Below are positions 24,027-34,822 of a stretch of 64,000 nt of DNA, piece by piece (position 1 is the stretch's first letter; each line of letters starts with the position of its first letter). The DNA comes from an uncultured Rivularia sp. GTDB lineage: Bacteria; Cyanobacteriota; Cyanobacteriia; Cyanobacteriales; Nostocaceae. A program made the position numbers and the translations under genes. The stretch covers positions 2,848,001-2,912,000 of the forward strand of contig OY762007.1 of assembly GCA_963665115.1 (NCBI GenBank), read 5' to 3'. The notes beneath the pieces were generated by a model. The model searched no databases. It was not told the DNA's origin and was given only the letters and a program-made list of their open reading frames with translations.

Positions 24027-25116
24027 ATGACAGATTTACCACCCAACCCTCAAAATGCTGAAAATCAACCCAATCAGGAACTATCACAAGAATTATTGCG
24101 AAAACTAAGGCAAAAAGAAGGAAACTGGGTGGAATGGGGAGAAGCTTGTGCTTATCTGCAAAAATCTGGTTATAATCCTCAAGATATTTTTGAAGCTACA
24201 GGTTTTGAACCAATTCAGCAAAATCAAATAATTGTTGGTTCTCAAGTTTACAACTCCCTAGAAAAAGGTGGGGCTTCGGAGGAAGTGAAAGCCCATTACT
24301 CGCAACGAGGAAGCGATTTATTGTACGAGTTTCGGATGCTTACTCAAGAAGAAACGTGCGAGTGCGGCCGAACTTGCCTTTAATCATAAAGTTGATGCAG
24401 ACGAAGTTAAAGAACTAGCCAGAGCAATCAAAGATTATTCCCGCTTGCGTAGTTTACCTGAAGGGTTTTCCGCACATCCAGGAGATGCAGTTGCTTATCA
24501 AACTTGGAAACAAGCCCGACAAAAATCAGATTTACAGTTGCGATCGCGCTTTATTGCCAAGGGTTTAAAGTTTGCACATACGGATACGGCACGAAAAAAA
24601 ATCGAACAGCTATTAACTGATTTTACAGTAGTTCCTCAACGCCCCGCACCGCTACTACCCTTTTACCGTCTGGAATCTGATGCAGAAATGTCTCGCGTAG
24701 TTCCCGTGGTAGGTGAGTTACCGCTGACACCAGATGATTTAAAAGCGGTTCCCATGGTGGAAGAAGACGGCCCATTTAACATGGTGAAATTTCAAGGTGT
24801 TGGTGCATGGGTACCATTACCAGGTTGGCAAGTAGTGTCAAATGCCGAAGATCCCGTAGTAATATTGTGTCAAAATCATAAATTTCCCAATCAAGAGCAA
24901 AACGTTCCGCAGCAAGTAATGGTAGCCGTAGATCGCGCTCAAAGAAAATGGGATGATGGCGGTTATTTCGTGGTAAATAATTCAGGAGAATTAGATTTTC
25001 AGTGGTTTGAAACCGAACCAGAAGTAGAAATATTAGGAAGATTAATTGTCATCGTCAAACCCAAGAGAATTTTGGATGAAGAGTTTACCAAAGATTCTTG
25101 GCAGATTGATGAGTAA
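24027..25116 (+). CDS. raf1: Rubisco accumulation factor 1; apparent +1 frameshift at 24352-24354
   Basis: LRQKEGNWVEWG, FEATGFEPIQQNQ and C-terminal WQIDE. Deleting one A restores TQEERASAAELAF and joins the two ORFs. Confidence 0.92.
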
Positions 25117-25277: not shown

Positions 25278-26312
25278 TCACCCCCTCCCATACTCTCTGG
25301 GAAGTGCAATCAAAAACTCCGTACCAATTCCGGGAGTAGAATGGCATTCTAATTTACCTTTGTGTTTATCAACAATAATTTTATAGCTTGTTGATAATCC
25401 TAAACCCGTACCTTTTCCAACAGCTTTAGTAGTAAAAAAGGGATTAAATATTTTTGTTCTAACTTCTTTTGTTATTCCCATCCCATTGTCAGTAATTCTT
25501 ATTAACGCAAAGCTTTCTTGAGTTTCGGTGCTAATTTTAATTTGCGGATTGGATGATTTTTCTAAAGCATCAATAGCATTAATCATAATATTCATAAATA
25601 CTTGATTTAATTGTCCCGCATAGCATTCCACGCGAGACGATTTACCATATTCTTTGATTATTTTAATTTCTGGACGGTTCGATTCTGCTTTAAGTTTGTT
25701 TTGTAAAATCATCAAAGTGCTATCAATACCATCATGGATATCAACATCTTTAATTTCAGCTTCATCCAAACGGGAAAAGTTGCGTAGAGAAAGAATAATT
25801 TTTTTGATGCGTTCGGCACCAACTGTCATAGAATCCAATAGCTTGGGAAAATCTTCTTTAATAAAATCAAGTTCGATTGCTTCTATTTTTGCTTGCAGTT
25901 CGGGAATGGGGTTTAAAGAAGATTTTTGATAGCATTCTAATAAGTTAAATAAATCTTCCGCGTATTTAGATACGTGAGTGAGATTGCTATAAATAAACCC
26001 TATGGGATTGTTGATTTCGTGAGCAACGCCAGCAACCATTACTCCTAAAGCAGACATTTTTTCCGATTCTATCAGTTGCGCTTGCATTGCTTTAAGGTTT
26101 TGCAAGGCTTTTTCTAATTCATGACTCCGTTGCTCTACAATTTTATTTGATTGTGCTAATTCGGTAATTACTTTTTTAAGTAAATATTCTTTTTTATCAT
26201 TGCTTTCTTCTAATAAAGTTTGATTTATTTGGGAACGTTCCAATTTCTTTTGCAAAATCCGATTAGTTTTTTCAAATTCCTTGATTTTTTGTTCATACTC
26301 ATATGCCTCCAT
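25278..26312 (-). CDS. Cytoplasmic sensor histidine kinase
   Basis: Coiled coil, H box VAHEINNP, N box NQVFMN, DNGMG and GTGLGL. Confidence 0.93.
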   Translation of the reverse strand: MEAYEYEQKIKEFEKTNRILQKKLERSQINQTLLEESNDKKEYLLKKVITELAQSNKIVEQRSHELEKALQNLKAMQAQLIESEKMSALGVMVAGVAHEINNPIGFIYSNLTHVSKYAEDLFNLLECYQKSSLNPIPELQAKIEAIELDFIKEDFPKLLDSMTVGAERIKKIILSLRNFSRLDEAEIKDVDIHDGIDSTLMILQNKLKAESNRPEIKIIKEYGKSSRVECYAGQLNQVFMNIMINAIDALEKSSNPQIKISTETQESFALIRITDNGMGITKEVRTKIFNPFFTTKAVGKGTGLGLSTSYKIIVDKHKGKLECHSTPGIGTEFLIALPREYGRG

Positions 26313-26318
26313 AATTAA

Positions 26319-27473
26319 TTACTCCACCCCTAAAAGTAAAGTGACAAAAGTATCGTGATGCAATCTACTTGGAGTACCACTTTGTAAAGGTGAAATTTCA
26401 CCATTCGTATAAAAACCACAACTGGGTACAGCTTGACTTAGAGAGGTTTTAGCTAGTTGATACTCTTCCTTAGTTCGCATACCTAAGAGTTGATGACGAG
26501 CAAGACAAGAGAAAAATAAAGCAGCTTGCGGTTGATTTCCGGGATAGGTTTTCAAAGCTTTTGTAATTGAAGTTTTAGCCGCAGATAAAATATCTTCACG
26601 ACTTGCTTGGGCTATTTGTACTACTGCCTGTTCGGGTACTTGTGCTAAATAATAAATGCTTTTACTTTGCCGATCGCAATTATAAGGCGCTCTTGTATAG
26701 AAATCGTTGGCTTGCGGATCTAAAATTGCTAAAGGATACTCAGGTGAAGGTGTAAGCCCACCGATGTAATCATCGTAAAAGTCTAAAGCTGGTTGATTGT
26801 CTATTTCGTAAACAATATTTTTATCGGCTTTACTAATTACAGCTTTTCTACCGATAGGGTGCCAACCATTTGCTACACCATAAGAAAACAATATTTTTCC
26901 TGAAAATATTAGAATTGGTACTGAATCATTCAAAATTTCAGTATTAAAAAACTGATAGCTTTGATGGAATTTCCTATTGTCTATAGATAATCCACCTAAA
27001 ATAGGAAAATTTTCACCTAACGCTTGCTTCAAGCTATCTACAATTGAAACTGCATCAACTGTAAGACTTTCGGGAGTTGTCAGGCAAAATTGATGAGATT
27101 TGTGATTACTTTTTGCTTGCGCTTGTTCGACTGCTTGTTTTGTCGCTGCAACTATATCTTTAGAAAGTCCTTTTCCAATACCAGCACGGATTTCAACTTC
27201 ATCGGAACAAAACAGCATCAAAGTCACGGAATCTTCCTCAAACTCTAATACCGAAGACATTTCCGCATCTGAGGTACAGCCAATTAATTCAATTCCGGGG
27301 AAAGCTCGGTTAATTTCTTGCAAAATAACGGAATGCTCGAAATCAATTGCAGCGAAAAGAATTCCAGCTGCTGGAATCTCTCCCGCTAAAGTGATTTGAC
27401 ACTGTTCTAATACTTCTGCAATAGCAGAATCGGAATCTGGATCGTTACTGTGCCCAACAGCTACCCTAAACAT
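26319..27473 (-). CDS. FIST N/C domain sensor protein
   Basis: LIGCTSDAE, VYEIDNQPA, FSCLAR and GFYTNGEI; 6 bp from the kinase. Confidence 0.9.
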   Translation of the reverse strand: MFRVAVGHSNDPDSDSAIAEVLEQCQITLAGEIPAAGILFAAIDFEHSVILQEINRAFPGIELIGCTSDAEMSSVLEFEEDSVTLMLFCSDEVEIRAGIGKGLSKDIVAATKQAVEQAQAKSNHKSHQFCLTTPESLTVDAVSIVDSLKQALGENFPILGGLSIDNRKFHQSYQFFNTEILNDSVPILIFSGKILFSYGVANGWHPIGRKAVISKADKNIVYEIDNQPALDFYDDYIGGLTPSPEYPLAILDPQANDFYTRAPYNCDRQSKSIYYLAQVPEQAVVQIAQASREDILSAAKTSITKALKTYPGNQPQAALFFSCLARHQLLGMRTKEEYQLAKTSLSQAVPSCGFYTNGEISPLQSGTPSRLHHDTFVTLLLGVE

Positions 27474-27663: not shown

Positions 27664-30294
27664 TTACTGTTGCGGCACTCTAACAAATTTACAAGTATTT
27701 TGACTGTCGCATTTTACTTGAACTAATACGCCGATTTCAGCATCGTTTTGAGGAGTGATTTTGCGATCGCCGTTTTCATCAAATTCTACTTTTCCTGCTG
27801 CACCTTCTGCAAAGAAATCGGGTGCGGATAAAACCTGTTGCAGCCCTTCGCGAGTTGGATTGTTATCCATACGTCGCAAACCTTCAGCAATTACCATCGT
27901 TGCATCATATGACATTGCAGTGCGCCAGTTGACTTGAGCATTCCAAAGTTCTTGAGCATCGCTTTCAAATGGGCTTTGATTGGCTTGATTTTCCTTTTGA
28001 AACCAAGGAATTGGAATCATCAGATTTTTTGCTTTCTCACCTTTACTTTCTACTGCTTGGCTATACAGAGAATCTCCACCTAAAAGTGTTAGTTCGGAGT
28101 CTTTATTGCTATCCAAAATTTCCAAAGCCTGATTAAAACTTCGACTAGTTTCAGGAACAAGCACTAACAAACTTACTGTTTCCTTAGCTTTTTTTACGCA
28201 ATTTGCAAAATTGGCATTTTTAAAAAGGTCGCATTCTGGAAGGTCAATAAATTCACCATTTTGTAATCGCAGTTGATTTTTTAATTCTTCACGAAATTGT
28301 TCCCCATAATCACGATTAGAAGCATATATAATAGCTGCTTTTCTTTTACCAAGTGTATTTACAATATGACTTACAGAATCTTTTAAGGCAATTTCATCAT
28401 TGCTAGCTGTACGAAAAACATATTTATTCAAATTCATTCCATATTCTTTATTTGGTGATTTTCTTACAGCAGTACTGGTAGGAGAAACCACAACCATTTG
28501 TTTTTGTTCATAAACTTTTCCAGCTGCGAGAGTTGCGCTGCTCGAATAATGACCGACTACTGCCAGAATATCTTTATTCTCAACTAATGTTTTCGCTACT
28601 TCTGAAGATGTCGGAGTCTCATCTTCGTCATCGGCAATAACTATTTGCAACAGTCTATTTCTAATTCCACAATTTAAATTAGTTTTATTTTGAGCTTGAG
28701 CAACCCCTCGTAATATTTCTTCATTAATTTTGTTTGGTGTATTACGAAAGCTAGGAGCAATAACGGCAATTCTCAAAGGTTTTGAATCGGTAATATCGCA
28801 AGATTTTGGATGAGCTTCAGCTTGGTTTGGAAGCTTATTTCTTTGTGACGGTACCATCGCTACAGCATTATTAAGATAAATCAATACTTCTGGGTCGTTC
28901 GGATTTTTTTGAAGAGATTGTTCAAAATATATAATAGATAGTTCGTATTTCTTTTGTTTAAAAGCTTTTATACCTTCTTGCTTCGATTCATTATAGCTAT
29001 CGTTAATTAATAATCTTTTTTCTCCCCAGCTAAAATCTTTTCCTAAGTCTTGTAGAGTATCTTCTAAATTTATTGGAGAGGTTGGACTTGCTTGAGTTGT
29101 AGGTAATACTGTCTGCGGTTGAGGGAAAAAATTACCTTGTGCAATACTTTCGCGGATTTTATTACCAGCAAAAATAAGCGCGATCGCAATTCCACCCAAA
29201 ACCAATTTTTTCGCAACTGTCATCGAAGAATTAGCCCAAACTAAAGGACGTGCGGCGGGGTTTTGACAAATTACGGGTAGCCAAGAAGCACAGGGAAAAT
29301 TATCTTCCATCCATTCGAGACGCTGACGTGCATTTCGCACTGCTGAATACAAAGAATTTCCTGTAGAAAAATCTTCTAAAAAGTATTTCAAAAACTGTCG
29401 TGCAACTTCATCGGGTACGGGTTCGCGCATCACAATCATTTGCGGAACTCCTATACCCCGCAATTCATCTGCTAAGCCCAAACCGTCGCAAGAATTAAAA
29501 ATTGCTAATTTTAAACCTTTTCTAACCGCTGTTCTTAAAGCGTTTTTTAACCGACTTAGTGAAATACTCTCACTGTCATTTATTTGAATTTGTCCGGTTG
29601 TACATTCTTCTCCAGAAGAACTATGTCCCGCAAAAAACAGAATATCCCAATCTTGATTCCACAAACTCTCATTTAATTCTTGTTTTTGAGGTTGTTCTAA
29701 CCAAGTAACTTTAGCTCCCCGATTGCGTAAATTGGTTATTAATTCTCTATCTAAGGTTAAATCTAATCCTTGACTACCACCAAATATAGCTAAAATTTTT
29801 ACCGGACGTTTTAAAGATTCTGTGGGGGGTGCATACTCGGCGCTTAAAGCAAATTCAGCATTGGGACGGTTGTGAAATAAATGCCATAAATGCCAAGGTA
29901 GCTTTTTTAAATAAATATTATTAGTATCAATAATTACTCTAACCGATTCATTTGGCAGGGTTCTTCCTTCTATTCGTACTTGTAACTTTTCCCAAGCAAG
30001 CTGAGAAAACCACTCACGTAAATATTTCTCAAATCTTCTCCTAGCTTCGTTTTCATTTTCGATTATAGAAACACGAGTAACTTGGGCCGAAGGAACATCA
30101 ATTTGTCTGAGATTTTCACCCAAATCACGGTATTTTTCTTGCCAGTCTTGATAAAAGCGAGGTATATCGGGTGCGGGGGGAAGCGTTACCTTTTCTTTAT
30201 GAAATGTTGGCCCATCTTCACCAATTCCGAGGCTTACAGGAAAACCTTGCTCGAAACTGCCTTCATCAATATTTAATACAGCAAATTTGCTCAT
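27664..30294 (-). CDS. CHAT (caspase-like) domain - TM helix - TPR - type I periplasmic ligand-binding domain fusion
   Basis: LPWHLW, FAGHSS, IFNSCDG and VMREPVPD; TM VLGGIAIALIFAG; NPNDPEVLIYLNN; LivJ-like AVVGHYSS...YDA...FDENGDR. Confidence 0.88.
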   Translation of the reverse strand: MSKFAVLNIDEGSFEQGFPVSLGIGEDGPTFHKEKVTLPPAPDIPRFYQDWQEKYRDLGENLRQIDVPSAQVTRVSIIENENEARRRFEKYLREWFSQLAWEKLQVRIEGRTLPNESVRVIIDTNNIYLKKLPWHLWHLFHNRPNAEFALSAEYAPPTESLKRPVKILAIFGGSQGLDLTLDRELITNLRNRGAKVTWLEQPQKQELNESLWNQDWDILFFAGHSSSGEECTTGQIQINDSESISLSRLKNALRTAVRKGLKLAIFNSCDGLGLADELRGIGVPQMIVMREPVPDEVARQFLKYFLEDFSTGNSLYSAVRNARQRLEWMEDNFPCASWLPVICQNPAARPLVWANSSMTVAKKLVLGGIAIALIFAGNKIRESIAQGNFFPQPQTVLPTTQASPTSPINLEDTLQDLGKDFSWGEKRLLINDSYNESKQEGIKAFKQKKYELSIIYFEQSLQKNPNDPEVLIYLNNAVAMVPSQRNKLPNQAEAHPKSCDITDSKPLRIAVIAPSFRNTPNKINEEILRGVAQAQNKTNLNCGIRNRLLQIVIADDEDETPTSSEVAKTLVENKDILAVVGHYSSSATLAAGKVYEQKQMVVVSPTSTAVRKSPNKEYGMNLNKYVFRTASNDEIALKDSVSHIVNTLGKRKAAIIYASNRDYGEQFREELKNQLRLQNGEFIDLPECDLFKNANFANCVKKAKETVSLLVLVPETSRSFNQALEILDSNKDSELTLLGGDSLYSQAVESKGEKAKNLMIPIPWFQKENQANQSPFESDAQELWNAQVNWRTAMSYDATMVIAEGLRRMDNNPTREGLQQVLSAPDFFAEGAAGKVEFDENGDRKITPQNDAEIGVLVQVKCDSQNTCKFVRVPQQ

Positions 30295-30542
30295 GATGGC
30301 TAAGGAGTAATGGTTTATTAAAACTTTAGTCTAATTTACAACAGCAATTATACTGAATGATAGATAATAAATCCTAATGTTCCAATTTCCGATCCAAAAT
30401 ACAAAAAACTGCATTCTTCCTTGACAAATGTAGAGACGCGATATATCACGTCTCTACATATAGAAAATATAAATTAAATTATTGTCAAAAATGACATTTA
30501 TTTTTAGAGAGAAAAATCGCTAATTACAACATATGTAAATAA

Positions 30543-31637
30543 CTAGATGACAAAACTCTCAGTAATACTGGCATCATCTAAAGCCACTCGAATATTAAAT
30601 TTATCTCCTAATTCAGCCGTGAATTTAAATTGAATATAATTATCTTTACTTCTAGATTGAACTGTAAAAAACGAGTTTCCGGCTGCATCTAAACCGCTAA
30701 GCTGCAATCCTTGAGGTAGATAATTCGTACCATTTCCCGGACATACTCTAGTTAAAATTGCCATGCTGCCATCGAGTTTGGGTAAAATTGCCACCATTAA
30801 AGCAATAAGTTTTTCACCGAAATGCATTCCTAGATCGATAGCTTTTCTTATGCCACCATTCAGGTTTTCTGGATTAATTTCCCAGAGTAATTCAGCAGCC
30901 TTCCAGCGAATTTCTTCGTTAGGAGTATTTTGTAATAAATGAATTAAAGCTTTTTCGGAATCTGAATCAACTTGATTTATCTCATGTTGAGTATCATACA
31001 ATTGCCCTACAGCATCTTTTATTTTATGAGAATTTTCATCATCAGAAGAAATATCTGCAAACACAAAAAGAGGATTAATTGTTCGTTTACCAATTATTGA
31101 CTCGATACTTTGCCAACCTGCATCAAATATATTTTCTAACCAATTACTCAATTGCACTACAGTTTCATTGGAATGTAATGCTACAAATAAGTCATCCAAA
31201 GATTGTAGTTGTTTAATTTCAAGCGTAGTACTGCTGACTTGCGGTAAAAATCCTAATAGCGTTCCTTGCTTATAAGATTCATCAAACTGTACCACAACAT
31301 AACCGATACGATTATGCCAAACATCTTCGGGAAAGTAACAATTATCGTCACCTTTTAATATAGAACGACATTCTAAATGTCCTTTTCCGGGTAAGTTTAA
31401 ATCAGCAATATTGGTACTTACTCTCGCAACAGCATTCCAACTATGACTCTGTTGTAATGAAGTTGGTACATCCAACATTTCTAAATAGTTGTTAGTTACC
31501 AATACTGCTAAAGTATTATGGTAAATTTGCTTCGCTTTTTCCGAATTAGCTTGTTGTTGAGCAAACAGATAGGCTTTGTTTCGATTTGATTCAGTAATAG
31601 GAACGGAAATAGTTAGCTGCTGTGTTGAGATACTCAT
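30543..31637 (-). CDS. DUF1822 family protein
   Basis: IYHNTLAV, RIGYVVVQ, LSNWLENIFDAGWQ and LPQGLQL...SRSKDNYIQ. Confidence 0.85.
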   Translation of the reverse strand: MSISTQQLTISVPITESNRNKAYLFAQQQANSEKAKQIYHNTLAVLVTNNYLEMLDVPTSLQQSHSWNAVARVSTNIADLNLPGKGHLECRSILKGDDNCYFPEDVWHNRIGYVVVQFDESYKQGTLLGFLPQVSSTTLEIKQLQSLDDLFVALHSNETVVQLSNWLENIFDAGWQSIESIIGKRTINPLFVFADISSDDENSHKIKDAVGQLYDTQHEINQVDSDSEKALIHLLQNTPNEEIRWKAAELLWEINPENLNGGIRKAIDLGMHFGEKLIALMVAILPKLDGSMAILTRVCPGNGTNYLPQGLQLSGLDAAGNSFFTVQSRSKDNYIQFKFTAELGDKFNIRVALDDASITESFVI

Positions 31638-31664
31638 TAGTAAATACCGTATTTTGAATTTTAG

Positions 31665-32312
31665 CTATGTGTCTATATATCCTTGCGCTCTGCCGAAAGC
31701 TAACAGACAAGGAAGACATTTGTGATTGTAGAAATGATTGAGAGTGCTTTCTCTTTTTCCAAACTTTTCGGCTAATTCCCGCCAAGTTTTTGCATCTGGA
31801 GGTAATCTGTGTTTAAACAATTCCTGACAGTTAATATTAGGAAATGAACGAACATGAAGACTACGTAATTCACTACCTTGTGTTTCAATCCATTCTAGAG
31901 TTTCTTCTAAAATCGGTTGCGGTTTGTCAGGTGCAGGTAAGTTATCTACCGGATCGATAAAATTTAATTCTTCATGTTCTGATTTAGTTGCTCTCCTTTT
32001 CTTTTCTTCAGCTATTTCTTGACGAACATCCAAAATTCTAAATTTAAGATGCGAGTTAAACCAAGTAATTACACTAGCTTGAGATGCATTATAATTTTCG
32101 ATATTTTTACAAAACCAAAACCAAGTTTTCTGCAATGCATCTTCGTAATATTGAGGGATAACTTCGCCACCCAGCCAAATTTTTCCCGACTGCTGCATCC
32201 GAGAAATCAATTGATTTAATAACTGCTGTCGCTCCAGGCTACCGCGAGGATGCTCAGAAACTTCTGTTGCCAATTGATTAAGCTGCTCATTTAAACCTTC
32301 AGAATGTGCCAT
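31665..32312 (-). CDS. Small sigma-70-like factor (cyanobacterial type)
   Basis: YEDALQKTWFWFCKNIENY...ITWFNSHLKFRILD (region 2-like) and a C-terminal HTH TWRELAEKFG. Confidence 0.7.
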   Translation of the reverse strand: MAHSEGLNEQLNQLATEVSEHPRGSLERQQLLNQLISRMQQSGKIWLGGEVIPQYYEDALQKTWFWFCKNIENYNASQASVITWFNSHLKFRILDVRQEIAEEKKRRATKSEHEELNFIDPVDNLPAPDKPQPILEETLEWIETQGSELRSLHVRSFPNINCQELFKHRLPPDAKTWRELAEKFGKRESTLNHFYNHKCLPCLLAFGRAQGYIDT

Positions 32313-32827
32313 ATGCGTAATGCTAATATGTAACTGAAAAACGACTGATAGATCGGGCGTTGCTCTCGCACGGCTGCTCCTGCAATGGTTTTGAATTTTC
32401 CGCTTCTTAAGGCTGTCAGACGTAATTCAAAAATCTGCCTATATCTTTACAAAACTTTACATTTTTTCGAGCAAATTGCAATTCAGTTTTGTGCAATATA
32501 ATACTTAACAAAGATTCGGGAACAAATTTCTAGTATTTCACTACACAAATGTTTATAGAAACTCATATTTTGCACCATTCTTAACAACCGCTTTAGAATA
32601 AATTCTTAGGCTAATACACAAAGTGGCTCTTTTGAAGACTGAGCAAGATGTAATTAGTAAGTGATTTATTGCCTCCGAAGTCCCAATCATGAAGCGATAA
32701 ATCGCTTACTACGAACCTAGTACAGTACGGCGTAAATAAAGCACCCATTTAAAAAGTTTGAAAGCCTTATCATATAATACTTTTTACTTCTTACTTTTGA
32801 CTTTTTACTTCCGCGCAGCGGTACTGG

Positions 32828-34822
32828 TTAAATTAATTTTTCACACCGATAAAGTTGATAGGGAATACCGATTCGATAATGTTGATTAACATCGATATTG
32901 CAAGATAATGTTTGAGAAACGTTAATTTGGTTTGGATAATCGCGTCGTAATCTTCCAGGTGCCAATATCCATAAGTTGAGTTGAGAAATCTTTTTATTTG
33001 GTAATTGGGAAAGCTTTTCAAATACTGATTCAAAACCGGAACTTTGATTTAAAAAAGCAAAAGTAGTGCGTTCGCATAGCGTGTCTGGAGGACAAACATC
33101 TTGCTCGCTAGAAAAATTAATTAGATTAGATTTAACATCTTGCTCGCTAGAAAAATCATATTTATTCGGATTAGTAGCTTGTTTGCTTAATAATTGATAA
33201 TTATAATTTACGGTTTCTCTTTCCAAAGCTAAAGCATAGCTCAAACCCAAAGCCACATCTTGATAATTGCTATATGCCATTACAGCCATTACGGGCACGG
33301 TGGGTTCTTGATAAATCTTTTGTGCTACTTGTTGGGGCAGATATGGTTTTTGTAAACCTAGATTAGATACAACGAAAATGCAACCGATCAAACCAACAAA
33401 TAAAATTATCGGTAATTGGTGATTTTTAATTTTTAAATTCGTAGTGCGAGCATCTTGCTCGCTTGAATTTCCACGTACATTCGTAGTGCGAGCATCTTGC
33501 TCGCTTGAATTTCCCCGTACATTCGTAGTGCGAGCATCTTGCTCACTTAAATTTCCTTCAGAAAGCAAGATATTTTTATCTCTACTGTTTTCGCGAATCA
33601 AACTGGCAGCAATTAAAGCGCTGAAGCTGGGATAATAAATAAAGTTGTAGCGGGGTGCAACTGTGATATCTTTACCAAGTATGTAGGAAATCGTAAATAT
33701 TCCTAGTAATACGAAAGTTGTGAAGCTTAATAAAGTTAAAGTAGGTAAACAAGTTGTAGGTTCTTTGAATAACAGCTTGATTCCTTTAAATACTTTCCAT
33801 CCTAACCAAACTGAAAATAACAACATTAGCAAACCGGAAATAATTACTATTGCTAAAGGCTGTCCTTCTACAGGTAACATAATTATCATTACAACCCAAC
33901 TAATCAAAGTTTGATAAAAGGGTTCGATGTGTTGGGGTGTAGGTAGCCAACTGGTTTCGGAACGGTTTAAATGATTTTGAACTATTTTGAGCCAGGGAAT
34001 AAGCGCGATCGCAACAGTGCTGATGGATAAAATTAATGCAATAAGACAATTTCGCAAAGATTTACTGCTGTGAAAACTTCTCTTGTGCAATGAGAAAAGC
34101 TTGATTTTTTTATTCCGTGACAAGCTAGGTAAAAATATTAGTAGTAATAAGGTAGCAATTTGAGCGATAAAGGCAATAATGCAAAAATAATGAATGTAAA
34201 TAGAAATAATATTGATAATTGTCCATGTCAGCCACAGCCAAACTCTAACTTGTTGACGTTGAATATCTTGCTGAATTTGTATAAGTGCTAACAGAGATAA
34301 ACTTATCGTCAGCATTGGTAAAGTGTAATGCCGTGCTTCCTGAGATAAATAAACCGCGAAAGGGGAAACAGCCACAAAAGCAGCACCCATTAACCCAGCT
34401 TTACGAGAAAAAGCTAATCGGTTGAGAAAATACACCGCTACAACCAAAGCGACACCAAACCATGCAGAAGGCGATCGCAATTTATTTACCCAGTCATCAC
34501 CAAGAGGAGCAACCCATCCTAAAAAGGCATACATTCCACAAAAAAACAGCGGTGGATGGGTAGATTCGGTAGCAATATTTTGAGCAATTTGAGGACAAGT
34601 TACCCCCGGTTGATAACTAAAAACATCCCGCAATTTTTCTAAAGGAAATACGACATCTAAGGGGATAGAACTATAATTTTTACCTAAACTAAAGATGGCG
34701 GTGATAACTTCATCCATCCACAAAGGTTTAAGTTCCAAATTCCAAAAGCGCAAAATAATCGCTAATGAAATAAAAAAAGTTAAACTCAAATAATGTAAAT
34801 TTAGCTTCCGATTTGTCATCAT
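32828..34822 (-). CDS. GT-C fold glycosyltransferase (family 39/PMT-like) with in-frame repeat insertions
   Basis: LWMDEV, THPPLFF and SQEARHY motifs, many TM helices and SEQDARTT repeats. Confidence 0.85.
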   Translation of the reverse strand: MMTNRKLNLHYLSLTFFISLAIILRFWNLELKPLWMDEVITAIFSLGKNYSSIPLDVVFPLEKLRDVFSYQPGVTCPQIAQNIATESTHPPLFFCGMYAFLGWVAPLGDDWVNKLRSPSAWFGVALVVAVYFLNRLAFSRKAGLMGAAFVAVSPFAVYLSQEARHYTLPMLTISLSLLALIQIQQDIQRQQVRVWLWLTWTIINIISIYIHYFCIIAFIAQIATLLLLIFLPSLSRNKKIKLFSLHKRSFHSSKSLRNCLIALILSISTVAIALIPWLKIVQNHLNRSETSWLPTPQHIEPFYQTLISWVVMIIMLPVEGQPLAIVIISGLLMLLFSVWLGWKVFKGIKLLFKEPTTCLPTLTLLSFTTFVLLGIFTISYILGKDITVAPRYNFIYYPSFSALIAASLIRENSRDKNILLSEGNLSEQDARTTNVRGNSSEQDARTTNVRGNSSEQDARTTNLKIKNHQLPIILFVGLIGCIFVVSNLGLQKPYLPQQVAQKIYQEPTVPVMAVMAYSNYQDVALGLSYALALERETVNYNYQLLSKQATNPNKYDFSSEQDVKSNLINFSSEQDVCPPDTLCERTTFAFLNQSSGFESVFEKLSQLPNKKISQLNLWILAPGRLRRDYPNQINVSQTLSCNIDVNQHYRIGIPYQLYRCEKLI
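33439..33548. repeat. Three tandem 39-bp units containing GTAGTGCGAGCATCTTGCTCGC, inside the CDS
   Basis: Encode (S)SEQDARTTN repeats; the same motif is intergenic at 7611, 16146, 21791, 25166 and 60034. Confidence 0.9.

Follow-up and report, generated by a model that had tools for sequence, protein, structure and literature searches.

HetF of Anabaena PCC 7120, a protease made of a CHAT domain, a transmembrane (TM) helix and tetratricopeptide repeats (TPR), cuts PatU3, a potential anti-sigma factor that binds and inhibits sigma-HetZ (PMC9457339, PMC13342950). In Craspase, the N-terminal end of Csx30 binds a sigma factor and its C-terminal end the CHAT protease Csx29 (PMC10028731), and CalpT, an anti-sigma factor with MazF-like and DUF2080 parts, is first cleaved within a loop and subsequently degraded (bioRxiv 10.1101/2024.05.08.593097). 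Closest in gene content, EACC2-caspase proteins with variable sensors, usually encoded beside a sigma factor of the extracytoplasmic function (ECF) type and a DUF1822 protein, were described computationally, and self-cleavage was proposed for them (Kaur et al., 2021, eLife, PMC8195603). The locus considered here comes from an uncultured Rivularia sp. (assembly GCA_963665115.1, contig OY762007.1, positions 2,848,001 to 2,912,000); this 64,000-nt stretch is called the window, and all positions refer to it. Three co-oriented open reading frames (ORFs) of the minus strand encode a sigma-like protein of 215 amino acids (aa), a DUF1822 protein of 364 aa and a receptor protease of 876 aa (Table 1), with spacers of 27 bp between the first two and 248 bp between the last two, and the nearest named relatives are from Rivularia and Calothrix. 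A first-pass annotation of this DNA had given the same three genes and the same 27-bp gap. It went too far in framing the triad as undescribed, since Kaur et al. (2021, PMC8195603) already report this gene set together with variable small-molecule sensors, and HetF cutting PatU3, in the same phylum, is a closer proven analogue than the Csx29/Csx30 pair that it named.

We consider it reasonably probable that the trio forms a ligand-gated, one-step cascade across the membrane, made of protease, anti-sigma factor and sigma factor and resembling HetF-PatU3-HetZ, with DUF1822 as the cleavable anti-sigma factor. From a mechanistic point of view, the N-terminal domain (N-domain) of DUF1822 would bind and silence the sigma factor, and its immunoglobulin-like (Ig) domain would dock the sigma-DUF1822 pair onto the cytoplasmic EACC2-CHAT head of the receptor. 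A small, probably amino-acid-like, periplasmic ligand would close the LivJ-like domain, and the protease would be activated via the TPR and the TM helix. The loop at residues 184-200 would then be cut, which in most relatives would happen after an Arg but in the Rivularia copy at a residue that is non-canonical, and further degradation of DUF1822 would release the sigma factor. Our analysis established how the genes are ordered, which domains and catalytic residues they encode, that their linkage is conserved, that sensors are exchanged and that the two DUF1822 ends sort apart; the sigma fold and the folds of the two DUF1822 domains are predictions. The gene set is already known from computation (Kaur et al., 2021), and the separate-end anatomy of DUF1822 is new: in the literature searched, outside which most subscription papers lie, DUF1822 turned up in two papers and EACC2 in one relevant paper; a two-ended, tail-swapping DUF1822 design was not found in print, nor was any experiment on DUF1822 or on the sigma/DUF1822/EACC2-CHAT trio.

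The two ends of DUF1822 sort separately, the N-domain with sigma genes and the Ig-like C-terminal domain (C-domain) with EACC2-CHAT proteases. Each domain was searched singly in 26 genomes, and 16 of the 17 places with an Ig end lacking the N-domain were examined, together with 20 of the 34 genes with an N-domain lacking the Ig end (the 14 omitted were weak N-domain matches). Eighteen of these 20 genes come after a sigma-like gene, the two exceptions having a transposase upstream. An acidic helical tail replaces the Ig end in 13 of them, nine of which are accompanied by a large TPR-CHAT gene with both His and Cys motifs and none by EACC2-CHAT. Sigma genes, N-domain/acidic-helical-tail genes and genes for cytoplasmic TPR-CHAT proteins of 980-1640 aa stand together at L146, L147, L148, L150, L153 and L155-L158; this trio is Craspase-like, with no Cas match at the one such locus tested. 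A divergent Ig tail was found next to a C14-type caspase gene at two loci (identified through Pfam at L162 and from resemblance alone at L154), and three further genes with such a tail are not beside one.

As for the Ig end, five of the 16 places were either fragments or truncated where the contig stops, and 11 were true fusions with another head, seven of which have an EACC2(-CHAT) gene as a neighbour or no more than 1.5 kb away. At L144, an ECF sigma gene (2e-10) is followed by a MazF-fold head joined to the DUF1822 Ig end, and then by EACC2-CHAT; this head resembles a PemK cluster (TM-scores 0.62/0.74) and is of the type present in CalpT, a proven anti-sigma factor. The order of an ECF-like sigma gene and then a MazF-fold/DUF1822-Ig fusion occurs at L144:5584-7266 and L141:4330-6314, with EACC2-CHAT next only in the former. 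Further fusions join the Ig end to an NB-ARC protein and to a protein of 710 aa whose sequence, judged by eye, is sigma-like (L137:4062-6026, L138:4394-6331, L139:4014-6143). In fusions, the loop moves along with the Ig end. Likewise, TRADD-N proteins annotated as DUF1822 and about 200 aa long precede EACC2-caspase genes in the supplement of Kaur et al. (2021, PMC8195603).

Partial distance correlations over 63 loci were 0.52 for sigma-N, 0.03 for sigma-Ig, 0.53 for CHAT-Ig and 0.06 for CHAT-N (0.58, 0.17, 0.48 and -0.02, respectively, over 22 thinned loci), a pattern that gene order alone could also produce, among kin that are not independent. The domain swaps therefore weigh more than these correlations. 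The first-pass annotation had cast DUF1822 as the anti-sigma substrate: swaps and correlations argue for a role as anti-sigma factor and docking partner, whereas its cleavage is inferred, and the Rivularia copy is without the Arg motif discussed below.

It is possible, although we hold this with some doubt, that the locus is the amino-acid-sensing member of a large cyanobacterial mix-and-match family of one-step receptor-protease sigma switches, in which a nuclease-fold anti-sigma head would be combined with exchangeable docking tails and the same Ig tail would carry other cargo. EACC2-CHAT receptors would be served by an Ig-like tail and cytoplasmic TPR-CHAT proteases by an acidic helical bundle, the latter arrangement being a counterpart of Craspase without CRISPR; a second type of Ig tail would go with C14 caspases, and MazF-fold, TRADD-N, HTH and NB-ARC cargo would be brought to the protease by the same Ig tail.

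Linkage of the three genes was conserved across genomes. Of 471 DUF1822 relatives in a scan of species genomes, the best 79 loci were kept; there, a sigma gene lay directly upstream of DUF1822 in 73 of 78 evaluable loci, a CHAT gene directly downstream in 75 of 77, and both flanked it in 69 of 76. Independence is overstated by these counts, since close orthologs make up 15 of the 79 loci and the same family supplied the profiles. The adjacency is beyond chance, and the swapped sensors that the first-pass annotation had suggested surveying also occur: among 54 C-terminal sensor segments of related loci (a set that omitted mostly near-duplicates), 41 were Peripla_BP_6, nine CHASE2 and four without a match. 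In the Rivularia genome itself, there are 14 EACC2-CHAT ORFs, with sensors that include CHASE2 (five), nSTAND1 (four; nSTAND1-WD40) and two kinds of binding protein, and all 12 DUF1822 N-domain genes directly follow a sigma-like gene (three large upstream proteins were counted as sigma-like by alignment only, with no sigma-family match of their own), nine of them with EACC2-CHAT within about 6 kb. More widely, DUF1822 is present in 23 of the 26 genomes, which were sampled from the order, and the N-domain profile matched 2053 clusters at 50% identity. Two EACC2-CHAT-binding-protein receptor genes stand in tandem behind a single sigma-DUF1822 pair at L051:9375-14808 and L097:9498-15183. The CHASE2-type receptors and pairs of the Rivularia genome (L001, L002, L003, L004, L016) have DUF928 genes as neighbours, three of them assigned by Pfam, along with genes that by eye resemble those of secreted haemagglutinins.

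DUF1822 is predicted to have an N-domain of nuclease-like fold, followed by a flexible loop, and to end in a C-domain that is Ig-like (AlphaFold2 model, pLDDT 86, pTM 0.58). The label of TPR protein given by Kaur et al. (2021) was considered and set aside, the model not being TPR. A VIA fold comparison aligned the N-domain (about residues 25-159) with I-Ssp6803I (Z 8.8, root-mean-square deviation (rmsd) 3.0, 112 aligned), a Z value close to the range that VIA calls common, and five further nuclease or resolvase rows had moderate Z values of 6.0-7.1; we take these rows to be PD-(D/E)xK enzymes. When solved structures were searched by sequence, neither DUF1822 nor the EACC2-CHAT head had a significant match; Foldseek gave none at E 0.001 for the DUF1822 model, and an Atlas search with the N-domain gave no usable one. 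The canonical PD-(D/E)xK motif comprises an acidic pair plus a catalytic Lys; by secondary-structure placement, D79 and E89 are kept here and Arg91 occupies the Lys position, so that the full signature is lacking. Among 149 aligned best representatives, a set biased toward the class of the Rivularia copy, N41 and E89 were kept in 149, D79 in 146 and R91 in 142.

Such a fold and such retention could also suggest that the N-domain is a latent nuclease freed by cleavage, within a receptor-triggered death or defence module in which the sigma factor would be inhibitor or co-output, and Kaur et al. (2021, PMC8195603) do place EACC2-caspase loci among conflict systems. We regard this as very unlikely: besides the Arg in place of the catalytic Lys and the near-common Z value, D79 and E89 are missing in five paralogs of the same genome, R91 is variable in the helical-tail group, genes with the N-domain alone nearly always come after a sigma-like gene, and PADLOC gave no match, Cas or defence, for the three proteins.

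The 215-aa protein is weak as a sigma factor by sequence and clear by predicted fold. Its Pfam match to Sigma70_r2 had an E value of 0.026 and the protein itself had no NCBIfam match at 0.001; TIGR02937 was matched by 21 of its 76 homologs, and three of the 76 weakly matched the III-E sigma model. By contrast, in the VIA comparison of its AlphaFold2 model (pLDDT 86), the top 10 of 50 rows were all sigma factors, spanning sigma2 and sigma4; region 2 of SigC came first (Z 10.3, 86 aligned at rmsd 1.9), and residues 126-215 were matched by sigma-H (Z 7.1). Foldseek rows agreed with this call, none reaching E 0.001. The predicted fold contains sigma2 and sigma4 domains only, as in ECF sigma factors.

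With regard to the receptor, the CHAT, TM, TPR and LivJ-like parts named by the first-pass annotation were all found, and a constant N-terminal domain that it had overlooked was added. This domain is common to 13 other ORFs of the genome, and paralogs with architectures listed by Kaur et al. (2021) can be aligned over the whole of residues 1-355; it corresponds to EACC2 by position and context. The catalytic pair of CHAT is intact exactly where it had been annotated, His224 (FAGHSS) at 29623-29625 and Cys269 (FNSCDG) at 29488-29490, and both residues are invariant among the 68 rows listed of 77 aligned. A TM helix lies between CHAT and the outer part, and 34 of the 36 relatives that were tested have a similar one. 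Outside, the TPR at residues 441-467 (Pfam 0.004) is below the cut-off, and the hairpin carries a near-invariant D-P-E-x-x-I-Y-x-N-N. The outer domain matched 12 solved amino-acid- or ligand-binding proteins (E 4e-13 to 8e-5). Its S585, which aligns to a ligand-binding serine of LivJ/LivK, is invariant in 37 of 37 sequences, and second-lobe positions vary; a ligand of amino-acid type is likely. The module of TPR and binding domain can be regarded as a receptor ectodomain with exchangeable outputs, because in the same genome it is also fused to a Ser/Thr kinase.

The candidate cut site deserves closer attention. Of 89 proteins, 47 had an [FY]-R motif in the loop, compared with 16 of 1132 background windows, and the loop motif occurred in 82 of 119 representatives; it resembles the PatU3 site, Y116-R117/S118. 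Several observations weigh against the proposed cascade, in addition to the ambiguity of the distance correlations. The motif was defined only after the loops had been inspected. Where most relatives have [FY]-R-S/G, the Rivularia copy has F193-A194-D195 (Ala194 codon at 31056-31058); Ala stands at the Arg position in this copy and its 15 orthologs (16 of 16, as F-V-F-A), only four of the 16 have an Arg anywhere in the loop, and no compensating change was seen in the CHAT columns examined for this Arg-less clade. In PatU3, cleavage by HetF falls between R117 and S118 and is abolished by R117A (Xing 2022, PMC9457339). The Rivularia protease either cuts by position instead of Arg or leaves its own DUF1822 uncut. 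Moreover, four of the 11 Ig fusions and three of the 12 sigma-DUF1822 pairs of the genome have no EACC2-CHAT nearby, and the strong retention of N41, D79, E89 and R91 in the class of this copy suits an enzyme as well as a binder. Homology between DUF1822 and PatU, whose C-terminal ends look alike by eye, received a profile-profile probability of 0.1% over the whole length and 0.3% for the C-domains, with a shallow PatU alignment of 22 sequences; since this comparison gave nothing, such homology is not claimed.

The loss of the loop Arg would be explained if DUF1822 were an uncut adaptor or anti-sigma factor, the receptor cutting itself, as in the autopeptidase activity already proposed by Kaur et al. 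(2021, PMC8195603), or another target, and the sigma factor being freed by partner switching. This is rather unlikely in our view. It would suit the occurrence of EACC2-CHAT and sensor on split genes (L105, L107, and 327723 and 1549795 of the Rivularia genome), but would leave aside the concentration of the [FY]-R motif in the DUF1822 loop and the movement of this loop with the Ig end; furthermore, cleavage of a partner in trans was reported for HetF (PMC9457339), Csx29 (PMC10028731) and CalpL (bioRxiv 10.1101/2024.05.08.593097). The same Ala, in 16 of 16, could instead mean that the family works as proposed and that the Rivularia-type copy is uncoupled, the neighbouring protease serving another of the 12 pairs or another substrate. 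Cross-talk among 14 EACC2-CHAT ORFs and 12 pairs is conceivable in one genome, and the spacer of about 250 bp ahead of CHAT has its own hairpin and TATAAT. We hold this to be unlikely, given that the trio and F-V-F-A are maintained in all 16 orthologs and that Craspase orthologs are reported to cut at a non-conserved site (PMC11106740). The cascade with a cleavable DUF1822 remains the reading that we favour for the locus.

Table 1. Features of the sigma/DUF1822/receptor protease locus (window positions).
Feature	Position	Strand	Basis or remark
ECF-like sigma factor, 215 aa	31665..32312	-	sigma2 ~residues 3-100, sigma4 ~126-215; predicted fold and homologs
DUF1822 protein, 364 aa, predicted anti-sigma/protease adaptor	30543..31637	-	PF08852 8e-79, residues 12-363
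DUF1822 N-domain, residues 9-156	31170..31613	-	predicted PD-(D/E)xK nuclease-like fold with N41, D79, E89, R91
Flexible loop, residues 184-200	31038..31088	-	candidate cut region; pLDDT <50 at 190-199
Helical HEAT-like insert, residues 201-254	30876..31037	-	HEAT_2 E 0.098; missing from many DUF1822 proteins
DUF1822 C-domain, residues 262-364	30546..30854	-	predicted Ig-like beta-sandwich; VIA rows Z 6-7.5
Receptor protease, 876 aa, EACC2-CHAT-TM-TPR-periplasmic binding domain	27664..30294	-	Pfam, hydropathy and alignment
Constant N-terminal domain, residues 1-160	29815..30294	-	EACC2 of Kaur 2021 by position and context
CHAT protease domain	29230..29808	-	PF12770 2e-17, residues 187-355; HetF model 4e-6
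Single predicted TM helix, ~residues 360-376	29167..29217	-	hydropathy 2.04, Lys-Lys just before
Outer TPR-like hairpin, residues 435-478	28861..28992	-	TPR_1/2 E 0.004-0.005; conserved
Type I (LivJ/LivK-like) periplasmic binding domain, residues 506-876	27667..28779	-	PF13458 2e-28 (Peripla_BP_6, 525-845)
13-base element	32478..32490	-	5' of sigma gene; invariant in 15/15 orthologous regions
Inverted-repeat hairpin	30429..30458		DUF1822-CHAT spacer; alignment of 13 orthologous spacers
Conserved TATAAT	30347-30352	-	3' of spacer hairpin, ahead of receptor gene

Regarding the non-coding parts, the spacer hairpin and TATAAT suggest that the receptor gene has its own promoter. The 13-base element was considered as a regulon marker: it had one other exact match in the genome, away from any gene start, at two mismatches no clear equivalent was seen in 52 more distant loci (four loose matches), and a promoter scan fell short of chance (10 vs 17.3). 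Directly downstream of the receptor gene lie a FIST/NosP-like gene and a histidine kinase gene (25278-27473, minus strand); a pair of the same size is 3' of the receptor in nine of 15 close orthologs and was not seen at more distant loci. Farther away, a single coding region on the plus strand (24027-25116) is apparently broken into frames of 118 and 223 aa, and a 664-aa glycosyltransferase-like gene 5' of the sigma gene contains a 42-base in-frame repeat in three copies (33434-33559).

If the proposed cascade is true, it would constitute a signalling route beside two-component systems and Ser/Thr kinases, in which one membrane protein senses an outside ligand and directly cuts an anti-sigma factor. 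It would give a function to DUF1822, make HetF-PatU-HetZ and Craspase special cases of a wider design, and predict which DUF1822 end binds what and where the cut falls. Synthetic biology, too, would gain a useful part, namely a ligand-gated protease whose docking tag can be exchanged.

The locus compares most directly with the neighbourhood of Kaur et al. (2021): a constant N-terminal domain and caspase, a variable C-terminal sensor including extracellular small-molecule domains, and adjacent ECF sigma and DUF1822 genes are all found here, and the paralogs of the same genome fit the listed architectures CHASE2+TM, nSTAND1+beta-propeller and pentapeptide. That study called DUF1822 a TPR protein and proposed self-cleavage, whereas we read DUF1822 as a nuclease-like and Ig-like protein that may be an anti-sigma substrate. 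With HetF-PatU3-HetZ the locus shares a cyanobacterial CHAT-TM-TPR protease and a gene, here for a predicted inhibitor, just downstream of an ECF-type sigma gene; however, its sigma factor, at 215 aa, has no inserts of HetZ size, and its protease carries a ligand-binding domain and is encoded in the same locus as sigma and DUF1822. The receptor was rejected as a HetF ortholog (25 bits for a cut-off of 1200), and the true HetF lies elsewhere in the genome (1364 bits), as do hetZ and patU (hetZ-patU at L018). Two more HetZ-related genes occur in this genome (L019:1012-2244, L017:1417-2604), and at L013:4789-7263 a CHAT-FHA protein (HetF model 9e-41) adjoins a 218-aa gene; to the eye this gene begins like PatU, and it was not matched by the PatU profile.

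Like Craspase (Csx29-Csx30-CASP-sigma), the locus combines a CHAT protease, a predicted two-ended inhibitor and a sigma factor of ECF-like type, but with a membrane receptor in place of Cas7-11; no CRISPR-like repeat family was present among 14 in the 64-kb window, to which this search was confined. Csx30, CalpT and HetZ were not among the fold rows listed, which does not imply their exclusion. The locus is neither a HetF system nor a Craspase. CalpL-CalpT-CalpS, for its part, has an anti-sigma factor of nuclease-type fold with a C-terminal protease-bound domain, a design echoed by the MazF-fold head on the DUF1822 Ig end at L144; it differs in using a Lon protease and a cyclic oligoadenylate trigger, whereas in the present locus the protease is of the CHAT type, the sensor lies outside and the head is predicted to be PD-(D/E)xK-like.

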